Shown one piece after another: positions 6,526 through 33,596 of a stretch of 44,241 nt of DNA. The notes beneath the pieces were generated by a model that worked only from the letters and a program-made list of their open reading frames with translations, was not told where the DNA came from and made no database searches. Every line of letters begins with the position of its first letter. Position 1 is the stretch's first letter. The translations under genes and the position numbers were made by a program. Source of the stretch: Holosporaceae bacterium (GTDB lineage Bacteria; Pseudomonadota; Alphaproteobacteria; UBA3830); contig JAISHN010000095.1 in assembly GCA_031262635.1 (NCBI GenBank), positions 1-44,241 of the forward strand. Reading direction: 5' to 3'.

Positions 6526-8547
6526 ATGCGGATGAATAAGTTTAAAGTTTTCTTAGACGATTTCTGCGAGAGTGAAAAACGCCGCGCGCCGAATTTTATA
6601 CCGGTTGGAATCGGGATAGGTATAACTATTTATTTCTCCTTGGATAACGAGCCGAGTTTCTGGCTCGGAGCGGCAATTTTAGCCGCGGCGCTGGGTTTGA
6701 GTTTAGTTTTATTACGTTATTGCGAGAAGGACGGAGTCCGACGCGGCAATCCGGCGATAAACGGCCGTTGTTTTTCCGACGCGCTTCGTCGCTTCGCTTC
6801 TTTGAAACTCCTCTCCCGCGTCCTGCTAACGATCGCGTTCGGCTTCTTCGTTTCTCAATTGCGAACGCAGATTGCGAACACATTTATGCTTTCCGAAAAA
6901 GACGACGAGCCGATTTCGTTAGTCGCGACATTGGAATCCTGCGAGAAAACCGAAAAGGGACTGAAATTTATCGTCGACGACGTAGAGAGTCGAAAATATC
7001 CTGATTTAAACAAGCTGCGTCTTACCTGGCGAGGGAAAAAGGCTACGCGGCATAAAGACGATTACGTTCCTGGATCGAGAATTTTATTCAGAGCGGTTTT
7101 ATCTCCCGCGTCGCCGCAGGCTTTTCCAAACGCTTACGATTTTAAAAAACAGCAGTATTTCAAAGGAATAAGCGGTCGCGGGTTCGTGATCTGGAAACCA
7201 AAAGTTCTTAGATTGCCCAAGCGAACGACGCGGTTGTTCGTAGAGCGGCTGCGTCATTATATAGACAAAAAAATCGAAGAATATCTTCCGCAGGAGACCG
7301 CGGGCGTGGCGAAAGCTCTTGTCACAGGCAACACAGCCGGCGTTTCTAAAGAAATCCGTCAAAATTTCGCGAATTCCGGCATAGCGCATTTGCTCGCGAT
7401 CTCCGGTCTTCACATGGGGATAATCGGATTTTTCATCTTTTGGCTTTCTAGGATTCTTTTATGCTGCGTTCCGCGAATTTCCATGTTTTACGACGTGAAA
7501 AAGATCGCGGCCGTAGTCTCTTGGATCGCGGTTTTGTGCTATCTGCATATTTCGGGAAAATCCGTGCCGTCCGTTCGAGCGTTTATTATGCATACGATCT
7601 TAATGCTCGCGATTTTGATAGACAAAGGCGCGTTGACGATGCGATCCGTGGCTCTCGCCGCGACGACTATAATGACCTGTTCGCCGGAAGTTATTATGTT
7701 TCCAAGTTTTCAGATGTCGTTCGGAGCGGTGATCGCTATCGTCGCTCTTTACGAACGAACTTGGAATTTTTCAGGATTTTTCAAAACGTTGTTCGACGTT
7801 GTCGCGACAACCGCCGTCGCTTCGGCGACTACGACGATATTTTCGGTGAGCGCGTTCAACCAGTTGACGCTAAACAGCGTTCCCGCAAACGTGATTTCCA
7901 TCCCTTTGACGTCGTTTTTAGTTATGCCGGCGGCGGCGGTCGCGTTGTTTCTGATTCCTTTTGGATTTTCGCAGCCGTTTATTGTTTTAATGGGGTTCGG
8001 AGTAAAAGCGCTAATGAAAATCGCCGAGCTGTCGGCTCAACTGCCTGGATCGTACTTTGTGATGCGCGCTCCAACTTCGACGAACATGGCGATTTTCATT
8101 TTTTCGGGACTCACGCTGACGTTAATTCAACATAGAGTTCGTTTTTTAGGAATCGTCGGAATAATCGCGGGATTGTTCTATTACTATTTTAATCCAACGC
8201 CGGACATTTTTATCTCTCCCTACGCGAAAACGATCGGTATAAAAACCCCTGAGGCCGCATGTTTCAGCCATCTCGGCCACTTCCGCTCGACGACCGCGGC
8301 TTGGGCGCGATCCATTGGTTTTGAAAAGGGTAAAAGATTCAATTCCAGAATCTGTAAAAAATATATCTCAAAAATCGACGACAATACCTATGAAGCAAGA
8401 ATAAAAGGCCGAAAAGTAACGCTCACCGACGACGAAAACGCCCTAGACGCCGTTTTTCTAGACGAAAACTGCGACTTCGCGAAAACGATATATATTCCTT
8501 CTCGCGAATGCGTCTCTACCGCGGCTAAGAAACGTCCGTGGAGCTAG
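6526..8547 (+). CDS. comEC: ComEC/Rec2 family competence channel protein carrying an in-frame palindromic-repeat insertion
   Basis: 673 aa polytopic membrane protein. It has the DUF4131-like N-terminal OB region and the competence-domain motif GIAHLLAISGLHMGI. There is no C-terminal metallo-beta-lactamase domain. Confidence 0.85.
   Translation: MRMNKFKVFLDDFCESEKRRAPNFIPVGIGIGITIYFSLDNEPSFWLGAAILAAALGLSLVLLRYCEKDGVRRGNPAINGRCFSDALRRFASLKLLSRVLLTIAFGFFVSQLRTQIANTFMLSEKDDEPISLVATLESCEKTEKGLKFIVDDVESRKYPDLNKLRLTWRGKKATRHKDDYVPGSRILFRAVLSPASPQAFPNAYDFKKQQYFKGISGRGFVIWKPKVLRLPKRTTRLFVERLRHYIDKKIEEYLPQETAGVAKALVTGNTAGVSKEIRQNFANSGIAHLLAISGLHMGIIGFFIFWLSRILLCCVPRISMFYDVKKIAAVVSWIAVLCYLHISGKSVPSVRAFIMHTILMLAILIDKGALTMRSVALAATTIMTCSPEVIMFPSFQMSFGAVIAIVALYERTWNFSGFFKTLFDVVATTAVASATTTIFSVSAFNQLTLNSVPANVISIPLTSFLVMPAAAVALFLIPFGFSQPFIVLMGFGVKALMKIAELSAQLPGSYFVMRAPTSTNMAIFIFSGLTLTLIQHRVRFLGIVGIIAGLFYYYFNPTPDIFISPYAKTIGIKTPEAACFSHLGHFRSTTAAWARSIGFEKGKRFNSRICKKYISKIDDNTYEARIKGRKVTLTDDENALDAVFLDENCDFAKTIYIPSRECVSTAAKKRPWS
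6716..6806. repeat. REP-B palindromic element copy 1 (inside comEC, in frame)
   Basis: gttattgcgagaaggacggagtccgacgcggcaatccggcgataaacggccg...cgcttcgtcgcttcgcttctttgaaa. Near-identical core to 33517-33596 and 44092-44150. Translated as ...YCEKDGVRRGNPAINGRCFSDALRRFASLKL... in ComEC. Confidence 0.75.
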
Positions 8548-10698: not shown

Positions 10699-10765
10699 CG
10701 AAGGATCCAAGCGATTTTCAGACTTCTTCGCCGTATGGATCCTTTGCTTTGTTCTGAGATGACGA
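10699..10765. repeat. REP-A palindromic element, partial copy at the left border of the GC-rich island
   Basis: cgaaggatccaagcg...cgtatggatcctttgc...ctgagatgacgag matches the central and right-arm parts of the full copies at 22356 and 29064. Confidence 0.6.
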
Positions 10766-11065
10766 GAGAGAGTCGTCTTTCAGCGATGTTGGACGCGCGC
10801 GACAGCGGATCAAAGTCCGGGAAGCGCTCAATTCGAGGCGGCCGGCAGCGACCAAATCCGCTGCTTCACGCCTATTTCCGAGGGAATCGACGAGCCTATG
10901 AAGATTCTCGAAAACGAAGACAAAGCCGATAAGAGGATCTTCAACATAGGCAACCCAGACAATATGATAAGTGTCAAGGAGCTGGCGTTCAAGCTGTCAG
11001 AGGAAGCGAAGAAGGACCCTACCAGGAGCGAGATGGCTGATAGGGCGCGGACAGGGCGTTTCAAG
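10763..11065 (+). pseudogene. Remnant of an SDR-type NAD-dependent epimerase/dehydratase (ArnA C-terminal domain / UDP-glucuronate decarboxylase-like)
   Basis: The frame of ORF 10898..11236, extended upstream to the in-frame TGA at 10760, reads ...AAGSDQIRCFTPISEGIDEPMKILENEDKADKRIFNIGNPDNMISVKELAFKLSEEAKKDP... This parallels the ArnA segment [23 protein letters not shown]...[23 protein letters not shown] (recalled from memory). Only about 75 residues of a protein over 300 aa remain. There is no Rossmann N-terminus and no proper start. Confidence 0.6.
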
Positions 11066-11099
11066 TTTGTGTCTGCACTGCGTAGTTTGTGTATTGCTA

Positions 11100-12365
11100 T
11101 TATCTTTTCCTACGCGGGCTTTGTAACGGCCTGGCTTCCATCAGCAGAGCCGGCAAGTGAGATCCTTGTAGCGCCAGCCTCATGTCAGGCGACAGGTCGG
11201 GCATGCACGGGCATTGGACCAACCGTTGTGCCGTAGGCGACAGTCTTGGCAGGCGCACCGCCATATCCATAGCTGCTATCGAGTCGCATGATGTGTCTAA
11301 AATCAGGCTCCAGTGATCGACCAGTTTCCCGTCGTGTTCCGCTGTAGTCTCGATCAGTTTTAGGATGTTCCTGGGCAGAGCTTTGGAGTGCAGGTGCACG
11401 AGGCCTTTTAGGTGGTCGCATACGCTGTGCAGGTGCCCGAGGCGAGTAAGGTTGACTCCGGTTCTGTACACTAAGTATTCCTCGATTTCTATTTTCATGC
11501 TTATCAGGCCTTGTATGTAGGTGATCAGATCTTCGTAGGCCGATCTGAGCCAGCGGGCGTCCAGTTCATCCTCATAATTTTCGCTGTAGATAGCGCGAGC
11601 CAGGACTCCGGATTTGGTTTGCAGGGTCGGTAGCAACTTTATGAGCGAAGCGGAGTGTCGGCAGTGTGTGCTTTTCCATAGCGTTTCTTCTAAGGGCCAC
11701 AGTTTTCCGATCAGTCGGGTGAGCTGGGTGCGCGCTGTTTCGTGTGGGAGTGTTGGCAGGCCGATCGGCTGTGGGCCACCGGTAAGTCGCACGACAGCGT
11801 TTTGGTTTTCAGGCTCTGTCTGCACAAGTGTATTTGTGGTCCATGGTGTCGGGGTTTCTGCCCCGTTGTCGGCGGCGTCTGGGTGCGTTGATTCAAGCTG
11901 GTGGTCCGCTCCGGCCATCAGGAGTGTCTCCAGTTTTCTGAATAGTGGTTTAGCTGATTTTGAGGTGGGGCGAGTTCCCAGAAGCTCACATAGATCTTTG
12001 AAGGTTGTCTGGGCCTGTCCGTCTAGTCCCATGTTGTTATCGTACATTCTTATCGCGTTGCCCAATGATTTCCTTTTTTTGAATAAGGCTTCAAGTCCGT
12101 CGATTGATCCGTAGTCGTCGGGCCTTGGCCGCACACTTTGTCCTAGTCGCCAGTATTCAGCGTCAGCTGGTGTTTGAGGTATCCAGGCGTCTAGCGTACG
12201 TTCTGCTAGTCGACAAATGAACTGGCGTAGTACAGGACCGTCTGTGTTCAGGCCGCGGTGGGCGGAGTGGTGTCGTATGGCGGCCGCAGCGTAGTCGTGG
12301 AACGGTAACGCACCTGATAGTGTTAACCAGATAAGAAACGGTACGTGAGTGCTAGTTGTTCGCAT
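11100..12365 (-). CDS. Island gene 4: orphan exported protein (421 aa), no recognisable family
   Basis: AAGGAG sits 8 nt upstream of the ATG at 12365. N-terminal signal-like segment VPFLIWLTLSGALPF...YAAAA. Same strand as the three upstream genes. Contains a repeated L[GV]HLHS motif. Confidence 0.6.
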   Translation of the reverse strand: MRTTSTHVPFLIWLTLSGALPFHDYAAAAIRHHSAHRGLNTDGPVLRQFICRLAERTLDAWIPQTPADAEYWRLGQSVRPRPDDYGSIDGLEALFKKRKSLGNAIRMYDNNMGLDGQAQTTFKDLCELLGTRPTSKSAKPLFRKLETLLMAGADHQLESTHPDAADNGAETPTPWTTNTLVQTEPENQNAVVRLTGGPQPIGLPTLPHETARTQLTRLIGKLWPLEETLWKSTHCRHSASLIKLLPTLQTKSGVLARAIYSENYEDELDARWLRSAYEDLITYIQGLISMKIEIEEYLVYRTGVNLTRLGHLHSVCDHLKGLVHLHSKALPRNILKLIETTAEHDGKLVDHWSLILDTSCDSIAAMDMAVRLPRLSPTAQRLVQCPCMPDLSPDMRLALQGSHLPALLMEARPLQSPRRKR

Positions 12366-12540
12366 GTGGGTAGCTCCTTTTATTTTATGTGCAGTTCCGT
12401 TTTACCCGCATTCTTATTCAGCGCTTTTGATTTTCGCCTAGTCTTATCTCGCGAGTCGACCCGGTTGCGGCCTGCCTCTCTAGGGCATCTTGGTTCCAGG
12501 TCGACGAGCCAGATTTTCTGTGGTAAGAGTTACCTGTAAC

Positions 12541-13206
12541 CTACCAGTGAGTTATGCCGCCCGCACCTCTCACCAGCGTCGCCGTTCCGCTCGGCGCTGT
12601 CGACACGGTCTTTGGTATCGCGTCGAAAGCCGCCACCGCTGCGTCTATGACTGCTTGTTGATCAGGGTCTGTTGCGTCGTGGCGCAGCACTTCAGCTACC
12701 ATCAGTTCGGTGGCGTTCATGAACGTTCGTTGCTCCGTCGTCTTAAGTCCTCTAGGCAAGGAGAAGTAACTGAGCAGCAGCTCTCGGACTTCAGGCCAGC
12801 GGCTCATATCGCCCAGGCGGTGCGTTAGTTGGTAGCCTATGGCGTGTTTGGCTGCTGGAAGAGGGTGTCCCGCCGTCAATCCGGCCTCCGTGTCCTTGAT
12901 TGGTCCACGTTGTGTATTCAGGAATTGGTCTAGTCTCTCCTGAGGCGTCCAGTCGTTGTATTGCACAAGCGAGCCTATTTCGACTATTTTCCTAAACGCG
13001 AAGATAGACGAGACCGTATGTTCCTTAGCACCCTGCTTCGGCCCGGCCGCCCTCACGACGAAACCCGCGGTCGCCCCGCCGTATCGGTCTTTGACCGCGA
13101 GCAGAGCAGCCCTCGTGAGGGCTCCGGCCTGGGCGGTTTCAGCTGTGGAGATGCCCAGCGCAATCAGCGCGGCGTACGCCAGGGTAGTTTTGGATTCTGT
13201 GTTCAT
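12541..13206 (-). CDS. Island gene 3: orphan exported protein (221 aa)
   Basis: GGAAAGGAAA SD sits upstream of the ATG at 13206. Signal peptide MNTESKTTLAYAALIALGISTAETAQA. No family recognised. Confidence 0.6.
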   Translation of the reverse strand: MNTESKTTLAYAALIALGISTAETAQAGALTRAALLAVKDRYGGATAGFVVRAAGPKQGAKEHTVSSIFAFRKIVEIGSLVQYNDWTPQERLDQFLNTQRGPIKDTEAGLTAGHPLPAAKHAIGYQLTHRLGDMSRWPEVRELLLSYFSLPRGLKTTEQRTFMNATELMVAEVLRHDATDPDQQAVIDAAVAAFDAIPKTVSTAPSGTATLVRGAGGITHW

Positions 13207-13259
13207 TTTTTGTTTCCTTTCCGTTATGTTGTTTAGTCGTTACGAACGTTTTATTGCCT

Positions 13260-13733
13260 TCAGTATGTGTCGAAGGTGCCTTGTCCCCTCTTTTGTGGCT
13301 GTCCTTTTCGTCTCTCCGTCGCTCCGGCTCGACTCAGGGCTTCCAGAACTTCCGGGCTGGGCGGTTGGGTTAGCTTGAGCGCCTGCGCGTTCGCTTCGAC
13401 CAGGGCGGCCCGACCTTGTTCGTCTCCTCCGATCGCGCGTTCTTGTCGGAGCGCGTCGTACCTCGCGGCGTACGCTTGCCAGGCCGCTTGCTCTGCCGGC
13501 GGTTTCGCACCGGCGACTGCTTGCAGTCGTGCGTATTCGTTTTCGATGGTCTGCGGGTCCGTTTTGCCCTGCTGGCCCTGGTCTTCTTTGTGTCCCAAGT
13601 CTATTTCCCCTATTCGGAACGGGTTAGTGGACGCGGCTAGCAAAGCTTGCATCTCCGCGGCCGTGACTGTGCCCGCTCCCAGTAGGCTTAGCATTATCGC
13701 GGCCAGTCCACCGCGGCTCGATGAGTTAACCAT
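13260..13733 (-). CDS. Island gene 2: small orphan exported Ala/Gln-rich protein (157 aa from the internal ATG)
   Basis: The ATG at 13733 is preceded by AAAGGAG. Signal peptide MVNSSSRGGLAAIMLSLLGAGTVTAAE. The longer track ORF (to 13871) has no SD and would overlap gene 1. Confidence 0.55.
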   Translation of the reverse strand: MVNSSSRGGLAAIMLSLLGAGTVTAAEMQALLAASTNPFRIGEIDLGHKEDQGQQGKTDPQTIENEYARLQAVAGAKPPAEQAAWQAYAARYDALRQERAIGGDEQGRAALVEANAQALKLTQPPSPEVLEALSRAGATERRKGQPQKRGQGTFDTY

Positions 13734-13794
13734 AGTGTATCTCCTTTCGTCTGTGTTCCGTTTCTTCGTAAGTGCTCGACCCTGCTGTCCGTTT

Positions 13795-14631
13795 CTACAA
13801 GCAGCGCCACAGCGCTGTGGCTGTGACCCGGTAGCCGCCCGTCCGGTGTTTGTAGCTAGAGGTTTCCTCAAGCTGTCCTACGGTAGTTTTCAGGTTCTGT
13901 CGCACGCTGTAGCCGAACGTGTGCACAGCCTTTATGTCGACCGACCAACGTCGCGTTAGGGGTCGCATCCATCCGACTCCCGCTTCTGGGCACGCCAACG
14001 TTCTGCGGCCAGCTTCCGTTGAGTGGTCCCGAGCCTTGAGTTCCGTGCGGGTGAGCAGGAAACCGGCGGCCAGGTAAGGCAGCCCGTACGTGCTACTGTT
14101 GTAGCCGAGGAGACCTAGCGCGTGCAGTTCCACGGGGCTTGTGCTTGCCACTAGTTTCGCGTATGGTCCCACGTCCAGATTTGTCTTGTTTCTCCCTCCG
14201 AGGTCGATAGCCACCGTCAAGCCGGCGGCTATGGAGTTGCCGCTTACTTGCAGCGCCGTCAGAGCGAGTGTTCCTTTGCAAGCCCAGGACGTTTTCTTCG
14301 CTGTGTTGTCGTTAAGCAGTCCGTAGTGTCTACCGTCGGAAGCCACCCATGCGGTTGGTGTAGTCGCTGGTTGCAGGTTTACTCGCGAGCAGCCTAATGT
14401 CAGCCCTTCCGATACGTTGTGGCGAGCCTGGGCAGCTGTTATACCTACACCCAGGTGCAACCCGCTGGGGTCACGGGCAGCCGTACCTTCGCGGTCATTC
14501 ACGCCTTCGTTGTTTTCTGCCGTTGTCGGTTGATCGGTACAGTATGTCGGCGTTGCAGACACGAACAGCGCATTTGCAACAGCAAATAACATAGTGCGAA
14601 CGCATATGTATTTTAAAGCCCTTTTCTTCAT
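13795..14631 (-). CDS. Island gene 1: putative small beta-barrel outer-membrane protein (OMP_b-brl/porin-like), 278 aa
   Basis: The ATG at 14631 is preceded by AAGGAAG. Signal peptide MKKRALKYICVRTMLFAVANALFVSA. Alternating hydrophobic and Gly/aromatic strands run throughout (GLHLGVGITAA, GLTVAIDLGG, HALGLLGYNSSTYGLPYLAAGFLL, WSVDIKAVHTFGYSV, GGYRVTATALW). Confidence 0.55.
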   Translation of the reverse strand: MKKRALKYICVRTMLFAVANALFVSATPTYCTDQPTTAENNEGVNDREGTAARDPSGLHLGVGITAAQARHNVSEGLTLGCSRVNLQPATTPTAWVASDGRHYGLLNDNTAKKTSWACKGTLALTALQVSGNSIAAGLTVAIDLGGRNKTNLDVGPYAKLVASTSPVELHALGLLGYNSSTYGLPYLAAGFLLTRTELKARDHSTEAGRRTLACPEAGVGWMRPLTRRWSVDIKAVHTFGYSVRQNLKTTVGQLEETSSYKHRTGGYRVTATALWRCL

Positions 14632-14830
14632 ATCTTCCTTTCTTACTCCTAAATATAAAATCAAAATTATGAATATACAACTTCACCTTGTAATGCAAGT
14701 CATAATTGCAAATAAAAATCTAAAAACCTGAACTCAAAATATACTATTAAGCGAGTTTTTACATTGAAATTTCAATTATTCTCACTCTTCTTATCTCAAT
14801 AAAATACTTCAATAGGTTACACCACTTTCC
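14632..14830 (-). promoter_or_regulatory. AT-rich putative promoter/leader region of the island operon
   Basis: Composition drops abruptly to a very AT-rich tract directly upstream of island gene 1. The minus strand contains TTACAA-N16-CATAAT and TTGCAT-N15-TATATT candidates. None is verified. Confidence 0.3.
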
Positions 14831-21298: not shown

Positions 21299-22090
21299 TC
21301 AGTTTACAATTCCAACTCCGCGTCCCCAGAGGACGTAGGCTTCTCCTCGTTGTTGAGTCCTACCTCTTATAGTATTGCTTCCTCCAGCGAACAGCATTTT
21401 TATAAACGAACTAGAAAAAACGTAGTTGCAGACAACAGTTAAGACAAATGTGACTCCAGAGGGAACTTTTTCATTGTTCCTAATCTTACCTTTATGAATA
21501 GCGCGGGTGCCTTCGCTCTTAAAGGTCTTGCTTCCATCTGAATCTATAAAATCAAAGGTATCAACAGGATCTACGATTCCAGTATGGTCGGCTAAGTACG
21601 CATATGTTTCAGCGTTTTCATGATATCCAATACTTTCTCCGCCGAATGGAGATTTGGAACACATGTTCTCTAGGCTACTATATACTCTAAGCCAATATCC
21701 AAGGTTTTGTTTTTGTATAAATGAAGGTATGTGTTTCTTGACTATTTTATCAATACTCGTATCTCCGTCCGCAATTCTTCCTTTTGCGATGAAATAAAAC
21801 GTAGCTTCTGCGGCAATAGTGTCGATTGCGGTTTGCGTTATATGGATTTTCATCAATTCGAACGTGAAAAATATTAAGTAACTGATTATCGGCAGAGTAA
21901 GAGCGGTTTCGATCAAAATTACGCCGCGTATGCGGGCGTCGCTTCCGCCGTTTATATTTTTCGTCTTCCTTGATCGCTCCTTTTCGTTATCCTTCGAGAG
22001 CAAGCGCGCTTGGCGATGACAAACAAGCCTAATCCAGTCAAAAATTAAAAGAAAACTCTTTGATTTACAATGAGATTCCCCCCCCCACAT
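21299..22090 (-). CDS. TadE-like pseudopilin/pilus-assembly domain protein, paralogue 1 (start uncertain, poly-G at the 5' end)
   Basis: RIRG|VILIETALTLPIISYLIFFTFELMKI resembles the TadE N-terminal domain with a G/xxxxE prepilin-peptidase-like site. The only in-frame ATG (22090) sits directly on the G9 tract and has no SD. Confidence 0.6.
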   Translation of the reverse strand: MWGGESHCKSKSFLLIFDWIRLVCHRQARLLSKDNEKERSRKTKNINGGSDARIRGVILIETALTLPIISYLIFFTFELMKIHITQTAIDTIAAEATFYFIAKGRIADGDTSIDKIVKKHIPSFIQKQNLGYWLRVYSSLENMCSKSPFGGESIGYHENAETYAYLADHTGIVDPVDTFDFIDSDGSKTFKSEGTRAIHKGKIRNNEKVPSGVTFVLTVVCNYVFSSSFIKMLFAGGSNTIRGRTQQRGEAYVLWGRGVGIVN

Positions 22091-22248
22091 TTGTCTTGCA
22101 GGCGCTAACGGACGACAATCTAACGACGGCGGTTTTGATCAATTTATAATAACGAAACATAACTGCCCTCGCGATAAACCTATCGGCATCGTTAAATAAA
22201 AACGGTTAAAAAAGAGTTAAAAAAACGCATATCGTAACTTAGGGGCGA
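22063..22248. repeat. Duplicated 5' module of the TadE-like genes, copy 1 (SD + ATG at 22160 + 24 codons + G9)
   Basis: Aligns along its full length with 29268-29455. By my alignment there are about five substitutions plus the tract difference (C9+AC versus C13 on the plus strand). Confidence 0.85.
22078..22086 (-). repeat. Homopolymeric tract G9 (C9 on the plus strand)
   Basis: Counted directly: ...gagattCCCCCCCCCacatttg... Confidence 0.9.
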
Positions 22249-22355
22249 TATTCGCATTTACAGACTTGGACGGGCTAACCTCGCTCGCTACAAAAAAACG
22301 AGCGCTACGCATAATGCAAAAGGAACAGGGTCTGCCTGCCCTTACGCCACTTTTT

Positions 22356-22452
22356 CGTCATCCTAGAGCGAAGCGAAGGATCCAAGCGGCGAAGACGCGG
22401 GAGAATCGTATGGATCCTTCGTCGGACTGCGTCCTCCTCAAGGGTGACGGAG
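22356..22452. repeat. REP-A palindromic element, full copy
   Basis: cgtcatcctagagcgaagcgaaggatcc-(loop)-atggatccttcgtcggactgcgtcctcctcaagggtgacggag. Long imperfect hairpin. Generates the spurious ORF 22266..22481. Confidence 0.8.
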
Positions 22453-22581: not shown

Positions 22582-23508
22582 TTAACCGGCGATTTTGCCG
22601 ACCAAATCTTTTCGGCCTCTGATGAAATCTTCGCCGGACATTTTGTTTTTTCCCGACGGCTGTACGAGAGTTAGTCTCAGCGATCCGACGCCGCAGGCGA
22701 CCGTCATTTTTTCGCCGATGAAGCCCGAACGTTCGCGCGAGTCTTCGTCGGCTATTTTAGCGTCGATGATTTTTACTCGCAGCCCGTTGATTTCCGTCCA
22801 AGCCGCCGGAGCGGGAGAAAACGCTTTAATCTGTCTTAGAACGTCTTGAGCGGAATTGTTCCAGTTTATTTTATACGACTCTTTTGAAATTTTTGTAACG
22901 TAAACGGCGCCTTCCTCCGGCTGCTTGCGGGCGTTGGACAGAGCGTCGTCAAGATTGTTCAGAGTCTCGACGATCATTGTCGCTCCTAAATCGCCGAGTC
23001 GCTCCGAAAGCTCGCCATATGTCGTTTCAGGGCAAATATCGACTAGTTTCATAGAAATAATATCGCCCGTGTCGATTCCTTCGTCCATTTTCATAATGGT
23101 AATTCCGGTTTTTTTATCTCCGGCTAAAATAGCCGCCTGAATTGGAGCCGCTCCACGCCATCTCGGCAACGCCGAAGCGTGAACGTTTATAAAACCGCGC
23201 GACGGAATGTCGAGCATAATACGCCGGATTATCAATCCGTAAGAAACTACGACGACTACGTCTGGTTTCAGCGAGCGAAACTCTTCTATGTTTTTCGCCA
23301 ATTTAAAAGTATTAGGACAATAAACCGGAAGGCCTTTGTCTTCCGCGAACTTATGAACGACCGATTTTTGGATTTTATACTTTCGTCCCGACCGTTTTGG
23401 CGGCTTAGTATAAACTCCGACGATATTGAACCCCGCTTCGTATAAAGCGACTAAGGATTTCAGCGAAAAATCTGAATTCCCCATGAATACGACGGAATTA
23501 TCCTTCAT
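22582..23508 (-). CDS. fmt: methionyl-tRNA formyltransferase
   Basis: VVFMGNSDFS, NVHASALPRWRGAAPIQ (SLLP-type motif), C-terminal OB-like domain, 308 aa. Confidence 0.93.
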   Translation of the reverse strand: MKDNSVVFMGNSDFSLKSLVALYEAGFNIVGVYTKPPKRSGRKYKIQKSVVHKFAEDKGLPVYCPNTFKLAKNIEEFRSLKPDVVVVVSYGLIIRRIMLDIPSRGFINVHASALPRWRGAAPIQAAILAGDKKTGITIMKMDEGIDTGDIISMKLVDICPETTYGELSERLGDLGATMIVETLNNLDDALSNARKQPEEGAVYVTKISKESYKINWNNSAQDVLRQIKAFSPAPAAWTEINGLRVKIIDAKIADEDSRERSGFIGEKMTVACGVGSLRLTLVQPSGKNKMSGEDFIRGRKDLVGKIAG

Positions 23509-24409
23509 TTATATGCCTAGCCAAAAGAATGCGGAAAATTTTGCGCAAATTCTCTTTCGAGAAACGTCCTATCGCTCGCAAAATCGCCTCTCGCTCGTCT
23601 TTCGTCAATCGTTTGCCAAGACTCCGCGATAGTCGAACGTCTTCTTTCCCCAATTCCAGAATTTTATTAAGAATAACGACTCCTCCGGCGACGAAAATAA
23701 AGTCCGCGTTCTCTTTAAGATAACGTTTGCCCAAATCTTCTTTCAGATTATTGAGGAAACATTCGAAGAGCTTTATTTTTTTCTCTTTTTTACCAAGAGC
23801 CTTATCGAAATATATCGCTAAGATTTCTTTGCGTTGAGATTCGCCTACATTTTGATGATCTATAAAGTTTTTTCCGTTCAGATGACAAATTTCATGCTGC
23901 GCGGCGAAAGCGTCGAAACCTGTTAGCCTAACCGTTTTGATTTTGAAATCGAGATCGCGATATTTTACGATGATTTCCAAACTTCTCGATGTTAGCGCCA
24001 ATACGTCCGGCAGCGACGCGCAAGCGTCTATCTCCGTAGAAAGCGCGTCTGATTTTTCCACAATCTCAGGATTTATCATGGCTAGCGTGGAAACTTTTCC
24101 GCCTTTAAGTCCGAATTGTACGACGATTATTCGTTTTAACTTTCCAATCTGCGGAGCGGCTAGAGCCGCTAAATGAGCGCTCGGATCTTTTACCCAAGCT
24201 TCAAGAACAGCCGCGATTTCTCGCGCTTCCGGCAGTTCGCTTTCCAATACGTCGGAGCATTCTTTGGACAGTATTGGATCGGGATCGGAAACCATCTCGA
24301 CTATCGGCGTTCTCGCCTCTTCCTTTTTAGACTCGCATTTAGCGGCGAAACATCCGATCGTTAGGAGCAAAACGCAAATTTTTTTAATTAAACCCGCTCT
24401 TTTTTTCAT
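23498..24409 (-). CDS. divergent peptide deformylase paralogue with a signal/lipoprotein-like N-terminus and a C-terminal extension of about 110 aa
   Basis: ALAAPQIG (motif 1), IDACASLP (motif 2, Cys kept) and QHEICHLNG (HExxH kept). N-terminus MKKRAGLIKKICVLLLTIGC. Sits between def and fmt with overlaps at both ends. Confidence 0.65.
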   Translation of the reverse strand: MKKRAGLIKKICVLLLTIGCFAAKCESKKEEARTPIVEMVSDPDPILSKECSDVLESELPEAREIAAVLEAWVKDPSAHLAALAAPQIGKLKRIIVVQFGLKGGKVSTLAMINPEIVEKSDALSTEIDACASLPDVLALTSRSLEIIVKYRDLDFKIKTVRLTGFDAFAAQHEICHLNGKNFIDHQNVGESQRKEILAIYFDKALGKKEKKIKLFECFLNNLKEDLGKRYLKENADFIFVAGGVVILNKILELGKEDVRLSRSLGKRLTKDEREAILRAIGRFSKENLRKIFRILLARHINEG

Positions 24410-24896
24410 TTTCTTGCGCCTTCAAAAATTTTTTCATAAATCGCGATTTTTTTAGTTTACTCAAATGATCGATATACAAAATCCCGTCAAGATGGTCGAT
24501 CTCATGTTGCAAACAAAACGATAAATACCCCTCCGCGCGTATCTCTTGTTCTTTAAAATCTTCGTCCAAATATGTCGCGACGACAGATTCATGACGAGCG
24601 ACAGTTTCTCTTAAAAGAGGAAACGACAAACATCCTTCTTTTGAGTCGACGCATTCTTCAGATCGCCAAATTATCTTTGGATTAATCAATTTATACAGCC
24701 GCGACGGTTCGTCTCGAACATCTATGACCGCGATTCTCTTTGAAACGCCGACCTGAGGCCCCGCCAATCCCGCTCCGTTCCACTCGTATAATTTTTGCGA
24801 CATTTCATCGAGGATCTTTCCGATTTTTGGATCTCCAATTTCAACCTCTTCGCATTTTTTAAATAAAATTGGATCAGGATATCTTATAAGTTCCAT
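24384..24896 (-). CDS. def: peptide deformylase
   Basis: GAGLAGPQVG, EGCLSFP and QHEIDHLDG canonical motifs, 170 aa. Confidence 0.93.
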   Translation of the reverse strand: MELIRYPDPILFKKCEEVEIGDPKIGKILDEMSQKLYEWNGAGLAGPQVGVSKRIAVIDVRDEPSRLYKLINPKIIWRSEECVDSKEGCLSFPLLRETVARHESVVATYLDEDFKEQEIRAEGYLSFCLQHEIDHLDGILYIDHLSKLKKSRFMKKFLKAQENEKKSGFN

Positions 24897-25368
24897 TTCA
24901 ATTGCTTATTCTTAACTACGCGGACACTTTAACGCATTTTGTCTCTTAATTCCATGCGTCGGTTTCGTAGGGCGAATAAATTATTGCTCCTTTTTTAGAT
25001 AGATAGCAGCTATACATTTTGTGGCTATTTATTCTAAATTTTAGCCGCTAACTCCTGTTAATTCAGGCTTTTTAATCCATTATTCGGGTTCCAAAATAAC
25101 TCTCGTCTATCTCTACTCTTCCGAAAAACTTTTCGCTCCTTTCCTTTTGTTTCTTCGCAATTTTCTCTCGCAGCTTGTGAAAATATTTTACGGCGGAGTT
25201 CCTCAGCTCCGCTGATCTTCGATTCAGGTTCCGCAGCAAATATGTTCGCCATTTCTAAATTTTTTTTGTAGAGGACGCTCAAAAATACCAAAGCAACTTT
25301 TCTAATCTTCCTTGAACCGGAAAAGATAATTGGATAAGTTTTCTAATTGCGAGATAAATGGAAAAGAT

Positions 25369-26499
25369 ATGAGAATAGGAAGTTATAAAAAACACAAAAC
25401 GCGCGACGAAGAATATTCGTCTTATATCCCTCCGAAACTTCCCGTCGACTTGCGGCTTGAGCCTCTTTACGAACTTATGGAGCGAGCGACTCATAGTCTG
25501 TCAAAACTAGACGGCGCTGCCGAAACGATTCCGAGCGTAAATCTATTTTTGTATATGTACGTTCGAAAAGAAGCGGTTTTATCGTCTCAAATAGAGGGAA
25601 CTCAAAGCTCGTTGAGCGATTTAATATTGTTTGAAAACGATCGAAAGCCGAACGTAGAAATATCCGACGTTAAGGAAGTCTCGCGTTACGTCGACGCTCT
25701 CGATCATGGAATTAATCGACTAAGAAGCGGTTTTCCATTATGTTTGCGGCTGATAAAAGAAACTCACGAGATATTGTTGCGCGATACTCGAGGAAAAGAA
25801 TGTTTGCCGGGCGAGTTTCGCTCGTCGCAAAATTGGATCGGCGGAACGCGTCCGGGAAACGCGGCTTTCGTCCCTCCAGAGCCTGAAATTTTGCCCGATT
25901 ATTTAGACAATCTTGAATTGTATATTCATTCGGAAGGTTCGCCTATATTGATAAAAGCCGCGATCGCTCATTTGCAATTCGAAACGATTCATCCGTTTTT
26001 AGACGGCAACGGACGTATTGGAAGACTGTTGATAATACTGATCTTATGCGACTTTGGATTGTTAAAAAGTCCGCTTTTATATTTAAGCCTTTATTTCAAA
26101 GAAAACAGACGCGTTTATTATTCGCTGATGAACGAAGTTAGAGAAAAGGGGAATTGGGAAGACTGGATACGTTTTTTCTTAAAAGGGGTAATCGAGGTTT
26201 CGGATCAGGCGGTTTCTATAATTTCTCAGATAACGGCGTTATTCGAGGTTTGCGAAGCGAAAATCGCGGAAACGGGACGGCGAAGATTTTCCGCGCGAGC
26301 GGTGTTCGAGTATTTAAAAACGGCTCCTTTCGCTACGGCGACGAGCGTTGCTAACAAATTGAAAATTTCCGTTCCGACGGCTAGATCGGCGTTAAACGCG
26401 CTGGTTGAATTGCAAATCATAGAAGCGGAAGAAGCGGATCAAAGAAGCAAATATTATAAATTTCAAAAATATGTAAATATATTAGACGCGGTCAGATGA
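25369..26499 (+). CDS. Fic family protein (Fic_N + Fido + C-terminal wHTH), class II with an intramolecular inhibitory motif
   Basis: HPFLDGNGRIGRLL (HPFx[D/E]GNGR). N-terminal VLSSQIEGT fits the (S/T)xxxE(G/N) inhibitory helix. The ATG at 25369 is preferred over the TTG at 25330. Confidence 0.85.
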   Translation: MRIGSYKKHKTRDEEYSSYIPPKLPVDLRLEPLYELMERATHSLSKLDGAAETIPSVNLFLYMYVRKEAVLSSQIEGTQSSLSDLILFENDRKPNVEISDVKEVSRYVDALDHGINRLRSGFPLCLRLIKETHEILLRDTRGKECLPGEFRSSQNWIGGTRPGNAAFVPPEPEILPDYLDNLELYIHSEGSPILIKAAIAHLQFETIHPFLDGNGRIGRLLIILILCDFGLLKSPLLYLSLYFKENRRVYYSLMNEVREKGNWEDWIRFFLKGVIEVSDQAVSIISQITALFEVCEAKIAETGRRRFSARAVFEYLKTAPFATATSVANKLKISVPTARSALNALVELQIIEAEEADQRSKYYKFQKYVNILDAVR

Positions 26500-28242: not shown

Positions 28243-29367
28243 TCAAGACGCCGGCGGCGGGGTTTCGCTGAAGAGGCCAGGTTTAGGGGTAAAAATGACG
28301 ACTGTGTTGAAGTAAGCGGTATCTACGTTGGATGCGGAAGTTTGACGACCGGAAGAAAGCGGCAACATCCAAAATCCAAACGCTCGATTAGAGGCGACCT
28401 TACTGCACGACGATCCGTCGCCAAATTTATACTGAGGACTATAAATTAAAATAACTTCCACAATAATTTTTACCTGCCCGGGTTTAATAGACAAAGTCGG
28501 ATAAATTTTCGAAGGAACAACATATTGCCCGTTACTTACGGTAGGTCGTTCTCCGCTCATTGATGAACCTGAATAAAGGCTAGAAGGAGTGTTCATAACA
28601 GTTTGGTGATTCCAAGATGATATTCGGAACGGCCATAGCAAGCTGGCAGTTCCGTCGTCATTGCCTCTTACATAATATATCATCAGCTCTGGAAAATGCC
28701 CGAGCGGATGACACCATTTTTGCGAATGAAATAGACCGTTAGACGGATAGAGACTCAAAAACGCCGCACTATATATGTGTTTCAAGTGAGCGACAGTTAT
28801 CGGTTGGCCGCGCGGAGCGTTTTGAAGCATGTTAATAACCTCATGCGCGACGAATTTCATCTTCGCCTGTATCTGATAATACTTTGGGATGTCATGCATG
28901 GCGACGAGGCACATTATCAATATCGGAACGCAGATCGCGAATTCTATCAAGACCGAGCCTCGGGAGTTTACGCGATCGAAGCGATTTCTTCTGTCGCGGG
29001 AAGACGGAGCTGCGCTATAGAAACTGCGCTCGTTTTCTTCATCGCCTTCGCCGTTTCTTCTTCCGTCATCCTTGAGCGAAGCGAAGGATCCAGACGGCGA
29101 TGACGCATGAAAATCGCATGGATCCTTCGTCGGACTTCGTCCTCCTCCAGGATGACGCGCTCCCTCTTCCATTGCGGAAAAGGATCGGCGCGAGAAGGAT
29201 AACGCCGCTACAGAAGCGGAGTCAGATTTTGTATTATTGCAGGCAAGATGATAAGAAAAATCGCTTAATTTACAATGAGATTCCCCCCCCCCCCCATTTG
29301 TCTTGCAGGCGCTAACGGACGACAATCTAACGACGGCGGTTTTGATCAATTTATAATATCGAAACAT
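28243..29367 (-). CDS. TadE-like pseudopilin/pilus-assembly domain protein, paralogue 2 (leader in frame through G13; REP-A inserted in the leader)
   Basis: GAGG sits 6 nt upstream of the ATG at 29367. The ORF reads MFRYYKLIKTAVVRLSSVSACKTNGGGGESHCK..., then SRG|SVLIEFAICVPILIMCLVAM (TadE-like with a G/xxxxEF site at about residue 137). Confidence 0.65.
   Translation of the reverse strand: MFRYYKLIKTAVVRLSSVSACKTNGGGGESHCKLSDFSYHLACNNTKSDSASVAALSFSRRSFSAMEEGARHPGGGRSPTKDPCDFHASSPSGSFASLKDDGRRNGEGDEENERSFYSAAPSSRDRRNRFDRVNSRGSVLIEFAICVPILIMCLVAMHDIPKYYQIQAKMKFVAHEVINMLQNAPRGQPITVAHLKHIYSAAFLSLYPSNGLFHSQKWCHPLGHFPELMIYYVRGNDDGTASLLWPFRISSWNHQTVMNTPSSLYSGSSMSGERPTVSNGQYVVPSKIYPTLSIKPGQVKIIVEVILIYSPQYKFGDGSSCSKVASNRAFGFWMLPLSSGRQTSASNVDTAYFNTVVIFTPKPGLFSETPPPAS
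29064..29157. repeat. REP-A palindromic element, full copy inside TadE-like paralogue 2 (in frame)
   Basis: cgtcatccttgagcgaagcgaaggatcc...atggatccttcgtcggacttcgtcctcctccaggatgacg. Translated on the minus strand as ...RHPGGGRSPTKDPCDFHASSPSGSFASLKDDG... Confidence 0.8.
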
Positions 29368-29455
29368 AACTGCCCTCGCGATAAACTTATCGGTATCGTT
29401 AAATAAAAACGGTTAAAAAAGAGTTAAGAAAACGCATATCGTAAATTAGGGGCGA
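29268..29455. repeat. Duplicated 5' module of the TadE-like genes, copy 2 (SD + ATG at 29367 + 24 codons + G13)
   Basis: See the copy at 22063-22248. Confidence 0.85.
29283..29295 (-). repeat. Homopolymeric tract G13 (C13 on the plus strand)
   Basis: Counted directly: ...gagattCCCCCCCCCCCCCatttg. Consistent with NGGGGE in the track translation. Confidence 0.9.
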
Positions 29456-29643
29456 ATGATTATTCGCCCTTACGCCTTCCTTCCGTCATTCTGAGCGTAG
29501 CGAAGAATCCATATGATGAATAAGCCTAAAAATCGTTTGGATCCTTCGGCCGCAAGCGGCCTCTAGGATGACGGAGAAATAGAACTTTCCGTCCATTATT
29601 CTCTATTAAAAAAACCGTAAGGGCGAATAATCATTCGCCCTTT
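29448..29643. repeat. Nested palindrome: 25 bp perfect inverted repeats, each itself a hairpin, flanking a REP-A copy (29484-29576)
   Basis: gggcgaatgattattcgcccttacg (29450-29474) is the exact reverse complement of cgtaagggcgaataatcattcgccc (29617-29640). On the minus strand the distal hairpin is followed by ttacgg and then seven T, so it may also terminate rplKA. Confidence 0.75.
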
Positions 29644-33443: not shown

Positions 33444-33475
33444 ATGGATCCTTCGCTCCGCTCAGGATGACGGAG
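33444..33475. repeat. REP-A palindromic element, right half only
   Basis: atggatccttcgctccgctcaggatgacggag. Confidence 0.6.
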
Positions 33476-33516
33476 AGGAGAACAATCATTCATCCCTCGC
33501 CGTTTCATGCCCCTAC

Positions 33517-33596
33517 GTTATTGCAAGAAGGGCAAAGCCCGACGCGGCAATCCATCTATGGACTGGCGCGTTTCGTCGCTTCGCTTCTCGCAATAA
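33517..33596. repeat. REP-B palindromic element copy 2 (intergenic, both arms present)
   Basis: gttattgcaagaagggcaaagcccgacgcggcaatcc...cgtttcgtcgcttcgcttctcgcaataa. The terminal arms ttattgcaagaag / cttctcgcaataa are complementary. Confidence 0.75.

Follow-up and report, generated by a model that had tools for sequence, protein, structure and literature searches.

A single stretch of 44,241 nucleotides (contig JAISHN010000095.1 of assembly GCA_031262635.1, Holosporaceae bacterium; hereafter the window) encodes a 374-residue TadE-like protein, paralogue 2, whose reading frame passes through an unbroken run of 13 guanines close to its 5' end. The features of this gene and of its many relatives are probably best accounted for by a translational switch of the slipped-strand type, situated in the disposable, cleaved leader of a TadE/TadF-like minor pilin (pseudopilin) of the Tad/Cpa system. 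Slippage of DNA would be the mechanism by which the length of the run changes, the leader would be cleaved from the protein, the product would serve in a pilus, and the source genome would be expected to hold a tad operon.

Paralogue 2 extends from position 29367 to 28243; this gene and a second one, paralogue 1, both lie on the minus strand, to which all of their window coordinates refer. A Shine-Dalgarno (SD) sequence, GAGGG (29377-29373), stands 5 nt 5' of the ATG at 29367, and the start codon and 24 leader codons, MFRYYKLIKTAVVRLSSVSACKTN (29296-29367), which show 3 substitutions among the four known copies, 2 of them synonymous, lead directly into the G13 tract (29283-29295). The tract is read in the frame of the body as GGGG and the first base of GAA (...CKTN GGGG ESHCK..., the tract being followed by GAA TCT CAT TGT AAA), which places the gene in the ON state (state 0), the length of 13 being an assembly consensus value in which a one-base error is possible. 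It is the sole run of G or C of at least 10 bases in the window, where 0.01 would be expected by chance, and the two other frames meet stops 3 and 5 codons past it. A homopolymer of at least 8 bases within the coding sequence, here 72 nt 3' of the ATG, together with premature stops in the alternative frames, is the hallmark of a contingency locus. The linker that follows (28960-29282, 108 codons) is open in the body frame only, the remaining two frames containing 3 and 6 stops, and was open in 110 of 5000 shuffles; the full pre-cleavage stretch of 137 codons stayed open in 36 of 5000 dinucleotide shuffles. The leader ends with the codon for G137 (28957-28959), the predicted -1 residue of a prepilin-peptidase site, SRG/SVLIEF (the slash marks the predicted cut), and beyond it lies a mature protein of 237 residues (28246-28956), in which Pfam, AlphaFold2 and alignment delineate a hydrophobic N-terminal helix, an alpha/beta head and a conserved C-terminus, VVIFTPKPGLFSETPP. 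An earlier, sequence-only reading of the window had described an SD, an ATG and a 24-codon module continuing through G13 into an open reading frame (ORF) of 374 residues, and both the coordinates and the reading of the frame confirm this description.

The family to which paralogue 2 belongs is a large and hitherto undescribed one of gut-associated Holosporaceae. A protein search returned 43 relatives, one source of which is named as a Holosporaceae metagenome-assembled genome (MAG); a scan of species-representative genomes returned 80 loci, all of them from Holosporaceae or Alphaproteobacteria MAGs of termite gut, rumen, cecum and similar origin; and the full profile search gave 501 clusters at 50% identity. 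Related loci are designated here by L-numbers and database proteins by P-numbers. At least 14 copies are present in RGIG8297 and at least 10 in RUG13554, found singly among housekeeping genes or in short tandem arrays, and the members are recognized by an invariant G/xxLIEF..P at the N-terminus and by the C-terminal motif VVIFTPKPGLF(S/D)ETPP. The poly-G tract is likewise a property of the family. In 490 kb of related loci (20% G), there are 74 runs of G or C of at least 8 bases. Family genes have G runs on their coding strand in all but two of these cases (72); 50 runs lie no more than 1 kb upstream of a motif-identified member, and most of the others fall in tandem-array loci, as inspection of L044 and L004 illustrated. 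In the housekeeping ORFs of the window, GGG makes up 11% of glycine codons and a GGG-GGG pair occurs once in 9977 codons; with GGG so minor and its tandem so nearly absent, the tract is kept as DNA and not for the glycines that it specifies.

Initiation upstream of the tract is a recurrent arrangement. An SD-ATG was recognized for 47 of the 62 tracts that precede a long ORF, and in L005 an SD with a GTG start is visible by eye. The best-sampled 5' modules, namely the rumen type (aGGAGcgcgcgATGaaatggtttgccaaaaaggtatttgac-G8/9/10-TAAGGACC...), the termite type (tGGAGcgaaaATGttgtctaagattgtgtctataatacaac-G11/12/13-caggctcttaga...), the RGIG1672 type (AAGAGGttttaATG...-G9/10/11) and the window type (cGAGGGcagttATG with 24 codons, then G9/11/13), differ in sequence and have in common a GGAG-like SD located 5-6 nt before the ATG that precedes the tract. 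Past nearly every tract exactly one frame is open, for 200-516 codons, and continues into the TadE-like body. Nine copies have their tract over 250 nt upstream, and in 8 of them no stop interrupts the body frame between tract and TadE motif, a distance of as much as 865 nt. In L040, the interval between G12 and the G-1 codon measures 24 nt and holds no start codon, so that the tract must be coding, while the in-frame product of L076 (G11) bears a canonical leader of 23 residues, MLPKIMTVMQRGGGQALRRARIG/AIFIEF. The upstream SD-ATG, the single open frame, L040, L076 and the open linkers together place the tract inside the coding sequence, within the leader.

The frame of each copy relative to its SD-ATG was tabulated with tract length, as the sequence-only reading had proposed. 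Five of the 47 scored copies are in frame (paralogue 2, L001, L019, L035 and L076), 27 are one base too long (+1) and 15 two bases too long (+2); paralogue 2 is one of the few ON copies. Since consensus assemblies show most copies out of frame, only a small, changing subset of them would be expressed in a cell. Tract length differs among paralogues with a common module (G8, G9 or G10 in the rumen MAGs, G11, G12 or G13 in those from termites and G9, G11 or G13 in the lineage of the window), as it does between the members of one orthologous pair (G9 in L013 and G8 in L019). A consensus cannot show minority lengths, and it is from such comparisons that we infer phase variation within populations. 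Positional orthologues that share 82% DNA identity in their upstream flanks are all out of frame, yet retain intact bodies that encode proteins of 46-61% identity, with nonsynonymous differences (pN) of 0.29-0.37 against synonymous differences (pS) of 0.55-0.70. By this measure the bodies are fast-evolving yet under purifying selection, and such selection on out-of-frame copies implies their expression, be it in certain cells or through some route.

The pilin character of the protein is indicated at its N-terminus. A class-III signal, comprised of a glycine at -1, a glutamate at +5 and about 20 hydrophobic residues, is present at SRG/SVLIEFAICVPILIMCLVAM, where G137 is followed by SVLIEFAICVPILIM, and Pfam places a match to TadE on residues 137-157. 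In an alignment of 24 homologues, G137, L140, I141, E142, F143 and P148 are invariant, of which G137, E142 and F143 are G-1, E+5 and F+6 of the G/xxxxEF prepilin-type site that had been picked out from the sequence alone; toward the C-terminus, the same holds for F359, P361, K362, G364, L365 and F366. Structure prediction, suggested at the same time, was run on the body of paralogue 2 and gave a confident AlphaFold2 model (predicted local distance difference test, 90; predicted template modelling score, 0.84), with a helix spanning residues 6-54 (49 residues) followed by an alpha/beta head with a beta-sheet.

The machinery that such a protein would require is encoded by relatives. Many Holosporaceae MAGs have an annotated CpaF of 72-92% identity, and in L045 a motif scan found a CpaF-type ATPase in the order cpaF-tadB-tadC, followed by G9 and then by a family member. 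A more complete operon is found in L096, from MAG ERP123703_co3_209, which also harbors the family locus L053; its genes are Peptidase_A24, RcpC, secretin, an uncalled ORF in the position of CpaD, CpaE, CpaF, TadB and TadC. The operon of L095 has the same composition with CpaD present and a first ORF that received no Pfam call, and L097 holds a full operon with a tract-less, family-like gene (MLIKVIKNRKKG/AILIEF) beside tadC. L097 had been considered, by way of a CpaF found only in Joint Genome Institute (JGI) data, as the operon of the window's own lineage, and was assigned to a different organism on its 37% GC content and on its having none of the miniature inverted-repeat transposable elements (MITEs) of the window. 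Judged from these loci, the clade has Tad machinery, including a prepilin peptidase; in a comparative study, tad pili were also reported in some Caedimonadaceae and Paracaedimonadaceae (PMC9992710). In L095, L096 and L097, the compact operons, which run from cpaA to tadC, contain no recognizable tadD, tadE, tadF or tadG and have no adjoining flp or pilA, and the poly-G family is a natural candidate for the roles of tadE, tadF and tadG. No small Flp-type major pilin (G-x4-E-[Y/F/T] with a hydrophobic stretch) was recognized by a motif scan beside the operons of L045, L095 and L096 or in the window. Just upstream of the tad operon in L096 (983-3280) lies a VgrG-like gene (Phage_GPD, Phage_base_V, Gp5_trimer_C), in keeping with reports of type VI secretion systems in Holosporales.

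From these features a sequence of events may be proposed. Translation would initiate at the SD-ATG at 29367, and the ribosome would pass the G tract within the leader-coding region. Slipped-strand mispairing at replication would alter the tract, lengths of 13, 10 and 7 keeping the frame and other lengths bringing a stop within 3-5 codons. In an ON cell, the hydrophobic helix would enter the inner membrane and an A24 peptidase of the CpaA/TadV type would cut off the cytoplasmic leader after G137. The discarded leader would be free to drift in sequence and in length, and in paralogue 2 it would have taken up a 97-nt MITE in frame to reach 137 residues. With each copy of a dispersed and fast-evolving family gated alike, the cell would express a small and changing subset.

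The sequence-only reading had called this leader unusually long. It is long, and at 137 residues it falls in the upper tail of the frame-corrected leaders of the family, which range from 22 to 299 residues with a median of 57, and hence within the family range. The length is owed largely to the in-frame insertion of the MITE at 29061-29157 (minus strand), a member of family D3 that is translated as ...RHPGGGRSPTKDPCDFHASSPSGSFASLKDDG... and is 88% identical to an intergenic copy at 22353-22449. The D3 element also lies in frame in L086 and in L001, the latter a different paralogue from JGI sample 3300042599 that has the same module with G11 and AG (an equal total length) and is itself in frame. 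Long leaders of other lineages contain different repeats, such as the duplicated ...VTLVNEKLRFAAY... in P0026, and it is proposed that a cytoplasmic leader that is later cut off can take up insertions while the frame stays open.

The D3 element itself is palindromic and about 97 nt in length, with the core ...CGTCATCCT.GAGCGAAGCGAAGGATCC..., and it occurs in the window at 22353-22449, 29061-29157, approximately 29466-29578, 10699-10764 and 33444-33479. It lies both in intergenic DNA and, in frame, in the leader of paralogue 2, and is found also in L001, L002 and L086; among all loci fetched, it is confined to contigs with the window-type module and is therefore usable as a fingerprint of the lineage. 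A second repeat family, D2 (66 nt), is present at 6708-6773, 33509-33574 and 44082-44147 of the window and at 2064-2129 of L002. Copies of D2 lie within an ORF for ComEC (6526-8547) and within an ORF for a DUF4096 transposase fragment (43804-44157), positions that suggest further in-frame insertions of MITEs in coding genes.

Paralogue 1 carries the second copy of the 5' module (about 22041-22261), which is 90% identical over 229 nt by self-BLAST and 96% identical over 171 nt. Its ATG is at 22160, its tract, GT and G9, at 22088-22078 (the G9 at 22086-22078), and its leader frame ends in TAA at 22067-22065, which corresponds to state +1. The body ORF (21299-22090) has a site RG/VILIETALTLPI, with the G-1 codon from 21925, and the C-terminus YVLWGRGVGIVN, and is not in the frame of the leader ATG at 22160; an additional ATG at 22090, without an SD, is in frame with the body as the tract now stands. 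The two loci are unlinked, with tRNA-Gly and fmt as neighbors of paralogue 1 and a Trp/Tyr permease and rplA as neighbors of paralogue 2. Their DNA parts ways after GAATCTCATTGTAAAT and the proteins share the N-terminal helix alone (29% identity over 41 residues). In all of this the sequence-only reading was accurate: one 5' control module common to two genes in separate settings, a G tract in the coding sequence that sets the frame, copies in opposite states with respect to their SD-ATG, and bodies that diverge beyond the module. Two of its interpretations gave way. The supposed duplicated cassette of two copies is instead the local form of a design present in dozens of Holosporaceae MAG genes, and the two genes, as members of two different TadE-like families, do not encode alternative forms of a single protein. 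The family of paralogue 1 is the smaller, with the C-terminus YLLWGRGVGIVN, and its members are usually single-copy, mostly with a short canonical leader (e.g. MFRSKSKG/VILIEV) and without a tract; L004 contains a member with a G12 of its own, downstream of a member of the large family.

A number of observations weigh against a slipped-strand switch in a pilin leader. The sequence-only reading had held that a fixed tract length would speak against it, and the comparison cuts both ways; the length differs among paralogues and between L013 and L019, but is the same in near-identical loci from different samples (G9 in L090, L091 and L092, and again in L084 and L085) and in the species-level orthologues of one locus (L026, L032 and L084, all G9), while the difference between L093 and L094 is a T-to-G substitution and not an indel. 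The +1 state is in excess, and the copies concerned are perhaps expressed in another way; +1 may be a resting OFF state between two ON lengths, or it may be a sign of ribosomal or transcriptional slippage or of a start adjacent to the tract, such as the rumen-type TTG or, in paralogue 1, the ATG at 22090. The module at the 5' end, whose presence in relatives was likewise at issue, is in frame in L001 and present in L002, but L086, an 85%-identical positional orthologue of paralogue 2, is without the segment of ATG, leader and tract, by deletion or because of a contig edge, and L002 has extra inserts, stops in all frames after the tract and a broken leader. These two loci show that the module is not indispensable. 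In the database protein that corresponds to paralogue 2 (P0001), the gene caller placed the start at M66, and we know of no prepilin peptidase substrate with a leader of more than 100 residues. Assignment to the TadE/TadF group is itself sub-threshold: Pfam TadE (PF07811) scores 20.7-21.3 bits against a cut-off of 22.9 and covers the first half of the model only, TadF (PF16964) scores 26.0 against 27.3 in the homologue P0042, a search of the family against NCBIfam gave no match, and a fold search of the PDB with the predicted model gave none either (best E 0.12, TM-score at most 0.2). Finally, as the sequence-only reading had observed, the window has no other tad or cpa gene, none being detected by Pfam among the 38 other larger ORFs (about 80 residues and up) that were submitted, and no tad gene was found in the 10-kb flanks examined of L083, L084 and L087 or in the flank of L088. 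The absence from the window does not itself count as evidence against the reading, because related MAGs hold their cpaA-to-tadC operon elsewhere.

Several of these points would find a place in the strongest of the competing explanations, itself rather unlikely, that the tract is decoded by the RNA or ribosome. A +1 slip on the rare codon GGG, slippage of RNA polymerase or a second start adjacent to the tract (an ATG at -2 or -4 in the window type, a TTG at -5 in the rumen type) would give out-of-frame copies a constant low expression, the tract length being a fixed setting. It is the predominance of +1 (27 of 47) and the constancy of length both among near-identical strains and among the three species-level orthologues that such decoding would anticipate, along with a leader frame that in several lineages ends exactly at GGG GGG GGG TAA, the stop standing right after the tract. 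The TTG of the rumen type is in frame with the body in the G9 state and is used by gene callers ('MTGGGKDLKNQ'), as the ATG at 22090 is in frame with the body of paralogue 1. These tract-adjacent starts are without an SD, however, and the termite-type G12 copies are without an in-frame upstream start codon. The 15 copies at +2 and the five in frame also deny the family a single conserved length, and RNA polymerase slippage is best documented on runs of A or T and not of G.

It is doubtful, and somewhat more so, that the true start of paralogue 2 lies downstream, at M66 or at another internal codon, with a 65-codon extension through G13 that is open by chance and a module unrelated to the gene. 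The start of P0001 at M66 would agree with this, as would the orthologue L086, where the module is absent and the called start is a GTG, and a weak promoter-like match just past the tract (29275-29248). On the other hand, M66 is without an SD and its position is occupied by AGG in L086, whereas the SD-ATG at 29367 is canonical. A stretch of 137 codons is seldom open in the shuffles described above, the same in-frame continuity is seen in L001, and the architecture is repeated throughout the family.

A third possibility, quite improbable, places the tract between the -35 and -10 elements of a promoter, where its length would tune transcription. This has some basis in the rumen module, in which TTGAC-G9-TAAGGACC-TAAAAAAT would give a spacer of 16-18 nt, and in a TAnAAT-like hexamer that several lineages, the window's among them (G13, AATCTCATTG, TAAATT), have about 10 nt 3' of the tract. 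In the window, however, no -35 element stands at a workable distance upstream of TAAATT to make a pair flanking G13, and the nearest match of a promoter scan, TTGTAA-16-TATCAT (9 of 12 positions), lies wholly downstream of the tract. In most lineages an SD and a start codon are conserved 5' of the tract and would on this model be untranscribed, the stretch from tract to body is open over up to 865 nt, and the short-leader members typified by L040 leave no space for a start after the tract; the upstream SD-ATG and these short leaders disfavor a promoter spacer. Least probable of all is a decaying family, its G tracts being mutational hot spots that inactivated most copies and its apparent design being what pseudogenisation left behind in a symbiont of reduced genome, a view to which the out-of-frame majority, the disruption of L002 in all frames and the N-terminally truncated calls of about one third of the best 150 database representatives lend themselves, but which is at odds with bodies open for 200-500 codons, with pN well below pS where pS is near saturation, and with pure G runs retained across genera in AT-rich genomes.

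The 5' modules display further features of their own. The non-coding part of the window-type module (29368-29449, minus strand), presumed to be a promoter and inclusive of the SD, is near-identical in paralogue 1 and L002, and no consensus sigma-70 site was found within it. At its 5' edge is a hairpin (29450-29474, minus strand), a near-copy of the terminator hairpin of rplA at 29619-29642, which a terminator scan flagged (29642-29619); self-BLAST gave the two as 25-nt exact repeats, and paralogue 1 and L002 have a degenerate version of the hairpin where their modules begin on the 5' side. The rplA hairpin (AAGGGCGAATGATTATTCGCCCTT) is present on either side of a MITE, the inner copy forming the edge of the module. 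A transcription insulator may therefore stand at the head of the poly-G module; alternatively, the hairpin may be a target or terminal repeat of the MITE. In rumen-type loci (L013, L017, L026 and others), the synonymous positions of a 10-codon leader (TTT GCC ... GTA TTT GAC), which occupies the 30 nt 5' of the tract, are almost invariant, and the family bodies in these MAGs are only about 50% identical, which suggests that this module is under constraint at the nucleotide level or subject to gene conversion.

Elsewhere in the window, a GC-rich island (10898-14664; 50-57% GC against about 45% for the rest) contains four ORFs of 203-421 residues with signal peptide-like N-termini and no Pfam match, which may encode horizontally acquired secreted proteins or effectors. 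Two adjoining peptide deformylase genes (23498-24409 and 24384-24896), one of which encodes a protein about twice the usual length (303 residues), lie upstream of fmt, and a Fic/DOC protein with a C-terminal winged-helix domain (25330-26499) is encoded between the def-fmt cluster and the permease. A search of the window against Rfam returned tRNA-Gly only, and a tandem repeat finder returned nothing.

Beyond the loci described, a phage collection searched with the module gave no match, and a metagenome scan with a 24-mer of the module gave 0 matches; JGI contigs do carry this 24-mer, and their sample lies outside that collection. The family is without annotation in Pfam or NCBIfam, and its genes are mis-started or truncated by gene callers. 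Indeed, the truncated calls among the best 150 representatives, which start after the N-terminal helix, are what gene callers yield for out-of-frame copies. Our search of the literature found no report of phase-variable surface families in Holosporales or Holosporaceae, and no discussion of TadE-type proteins in Holosporales. A review does mention that termites and antelopes house an uncharacterized gut clade of 'Ca. Paracaedibacteraceae' (PMC11909080).

The mechanism proposed for paralogue 2 and its relatives is of a well-known kind, that of the simple-sequence contingency locus, with its closest counterparts in Neisseria. The pilC1 and pilC2 genes contain a poly-G tract in the cleaved leader (the signal-peptide region) of a pilus-associated protein, frameshifts in which turn the product ON or OFF at translation, and the likeness lies in a G homopolymer within the cleaved N-terminal leader of a protein associated with a pilus. 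PilC is, however, a Sec-exported tip and assembly protein of the type IV pilus with two copies, whereas here the products are class-III pseudopilins with at least 10 dispersed copies in Holosporaceae. The Opa proteins are encoded by about 11 dispersed genes with CTCTT repeats in the leader-coding region, a subset of which is ON in each cell. They are comparable in forming a dispersed family, each copy with its own start and a frame-setting repeat in its leader, but differ in having pentamer repeats and not a homopolymer, a short and fixed leader, and products that are outer-membrane beta-barrels.

As proteins, the members most resemble TadE and TadF of Aggregatibacter actinomycetemcomitans and of the Cpa system of Caulobacter, with which they share a G/xxxxE(F/Y) site for TadV/CpaA, an N-terminal helix and a size of about 200 residues; the members in L045 and L097 lie at tadC, the usual place of tadE and tadF genes. 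The canonical genes, by contrast, are single-copy, reside in the tad operon and have leaders of about 10-30 residues without a tract, whereas the present family falls below the Pfam cut-offs, is scattered among housekeeping genes and has its own C-terminal motif, FTPKPGLF. Homopolymers of G or C of about 8-13 bases occur, many to a genome, in the coding sequences of genes for surface structures in Campylobacter jejuni, Helicobacter pylori and the pmp genes of Chlamydia pneumoniae; these differ in that their targets are glycosyltransferases, restriction-modification systems and autotransporters and in that the tract is not in a removable leader. The palindromic elements of Rickettsia offer a likeness to the insertion at 29061-29157, being short palindromic repeats in an ORF that leave the frame intact, with the difference that the present element lies in a segment predicted to be cleaved off, such that the mature protein need not tolerate it.

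What appears to be new is the setting: symbionts of the Holosporaceae, a dispersed family of Tad pseudopilins, a switch in a class-III leader that grows by acquiring MITEs, and a majority of copies silent in consensus. A broader account of the clade may be offered more tentatively, and the balance of probability lies somewhat against it. In this gut-dwelling, probably protist-associated clade of Holosporaceae, Tad minor pilins might have moved out of their operon and expanded to 10-15 or more poly-G-gated genes, most of them silent, of which a random subset would prime or tip the pili and bring about adhesive or antigenic variation, the leader serving as a landing pad for MITEs and reaching up to about 300 residues. 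Phase-variable surface families are a textbook trait of free-living mucosal pathogens. If the slipped-strand reading is true, uncultured symbionts with small genomes devote a sizeable share of their coding capacity to the stochastic switching of pilus subunits, which would indicate that selection at the host interface is both strong and changing, and their prepilin peptidases would accept leaders ten times the usual length.

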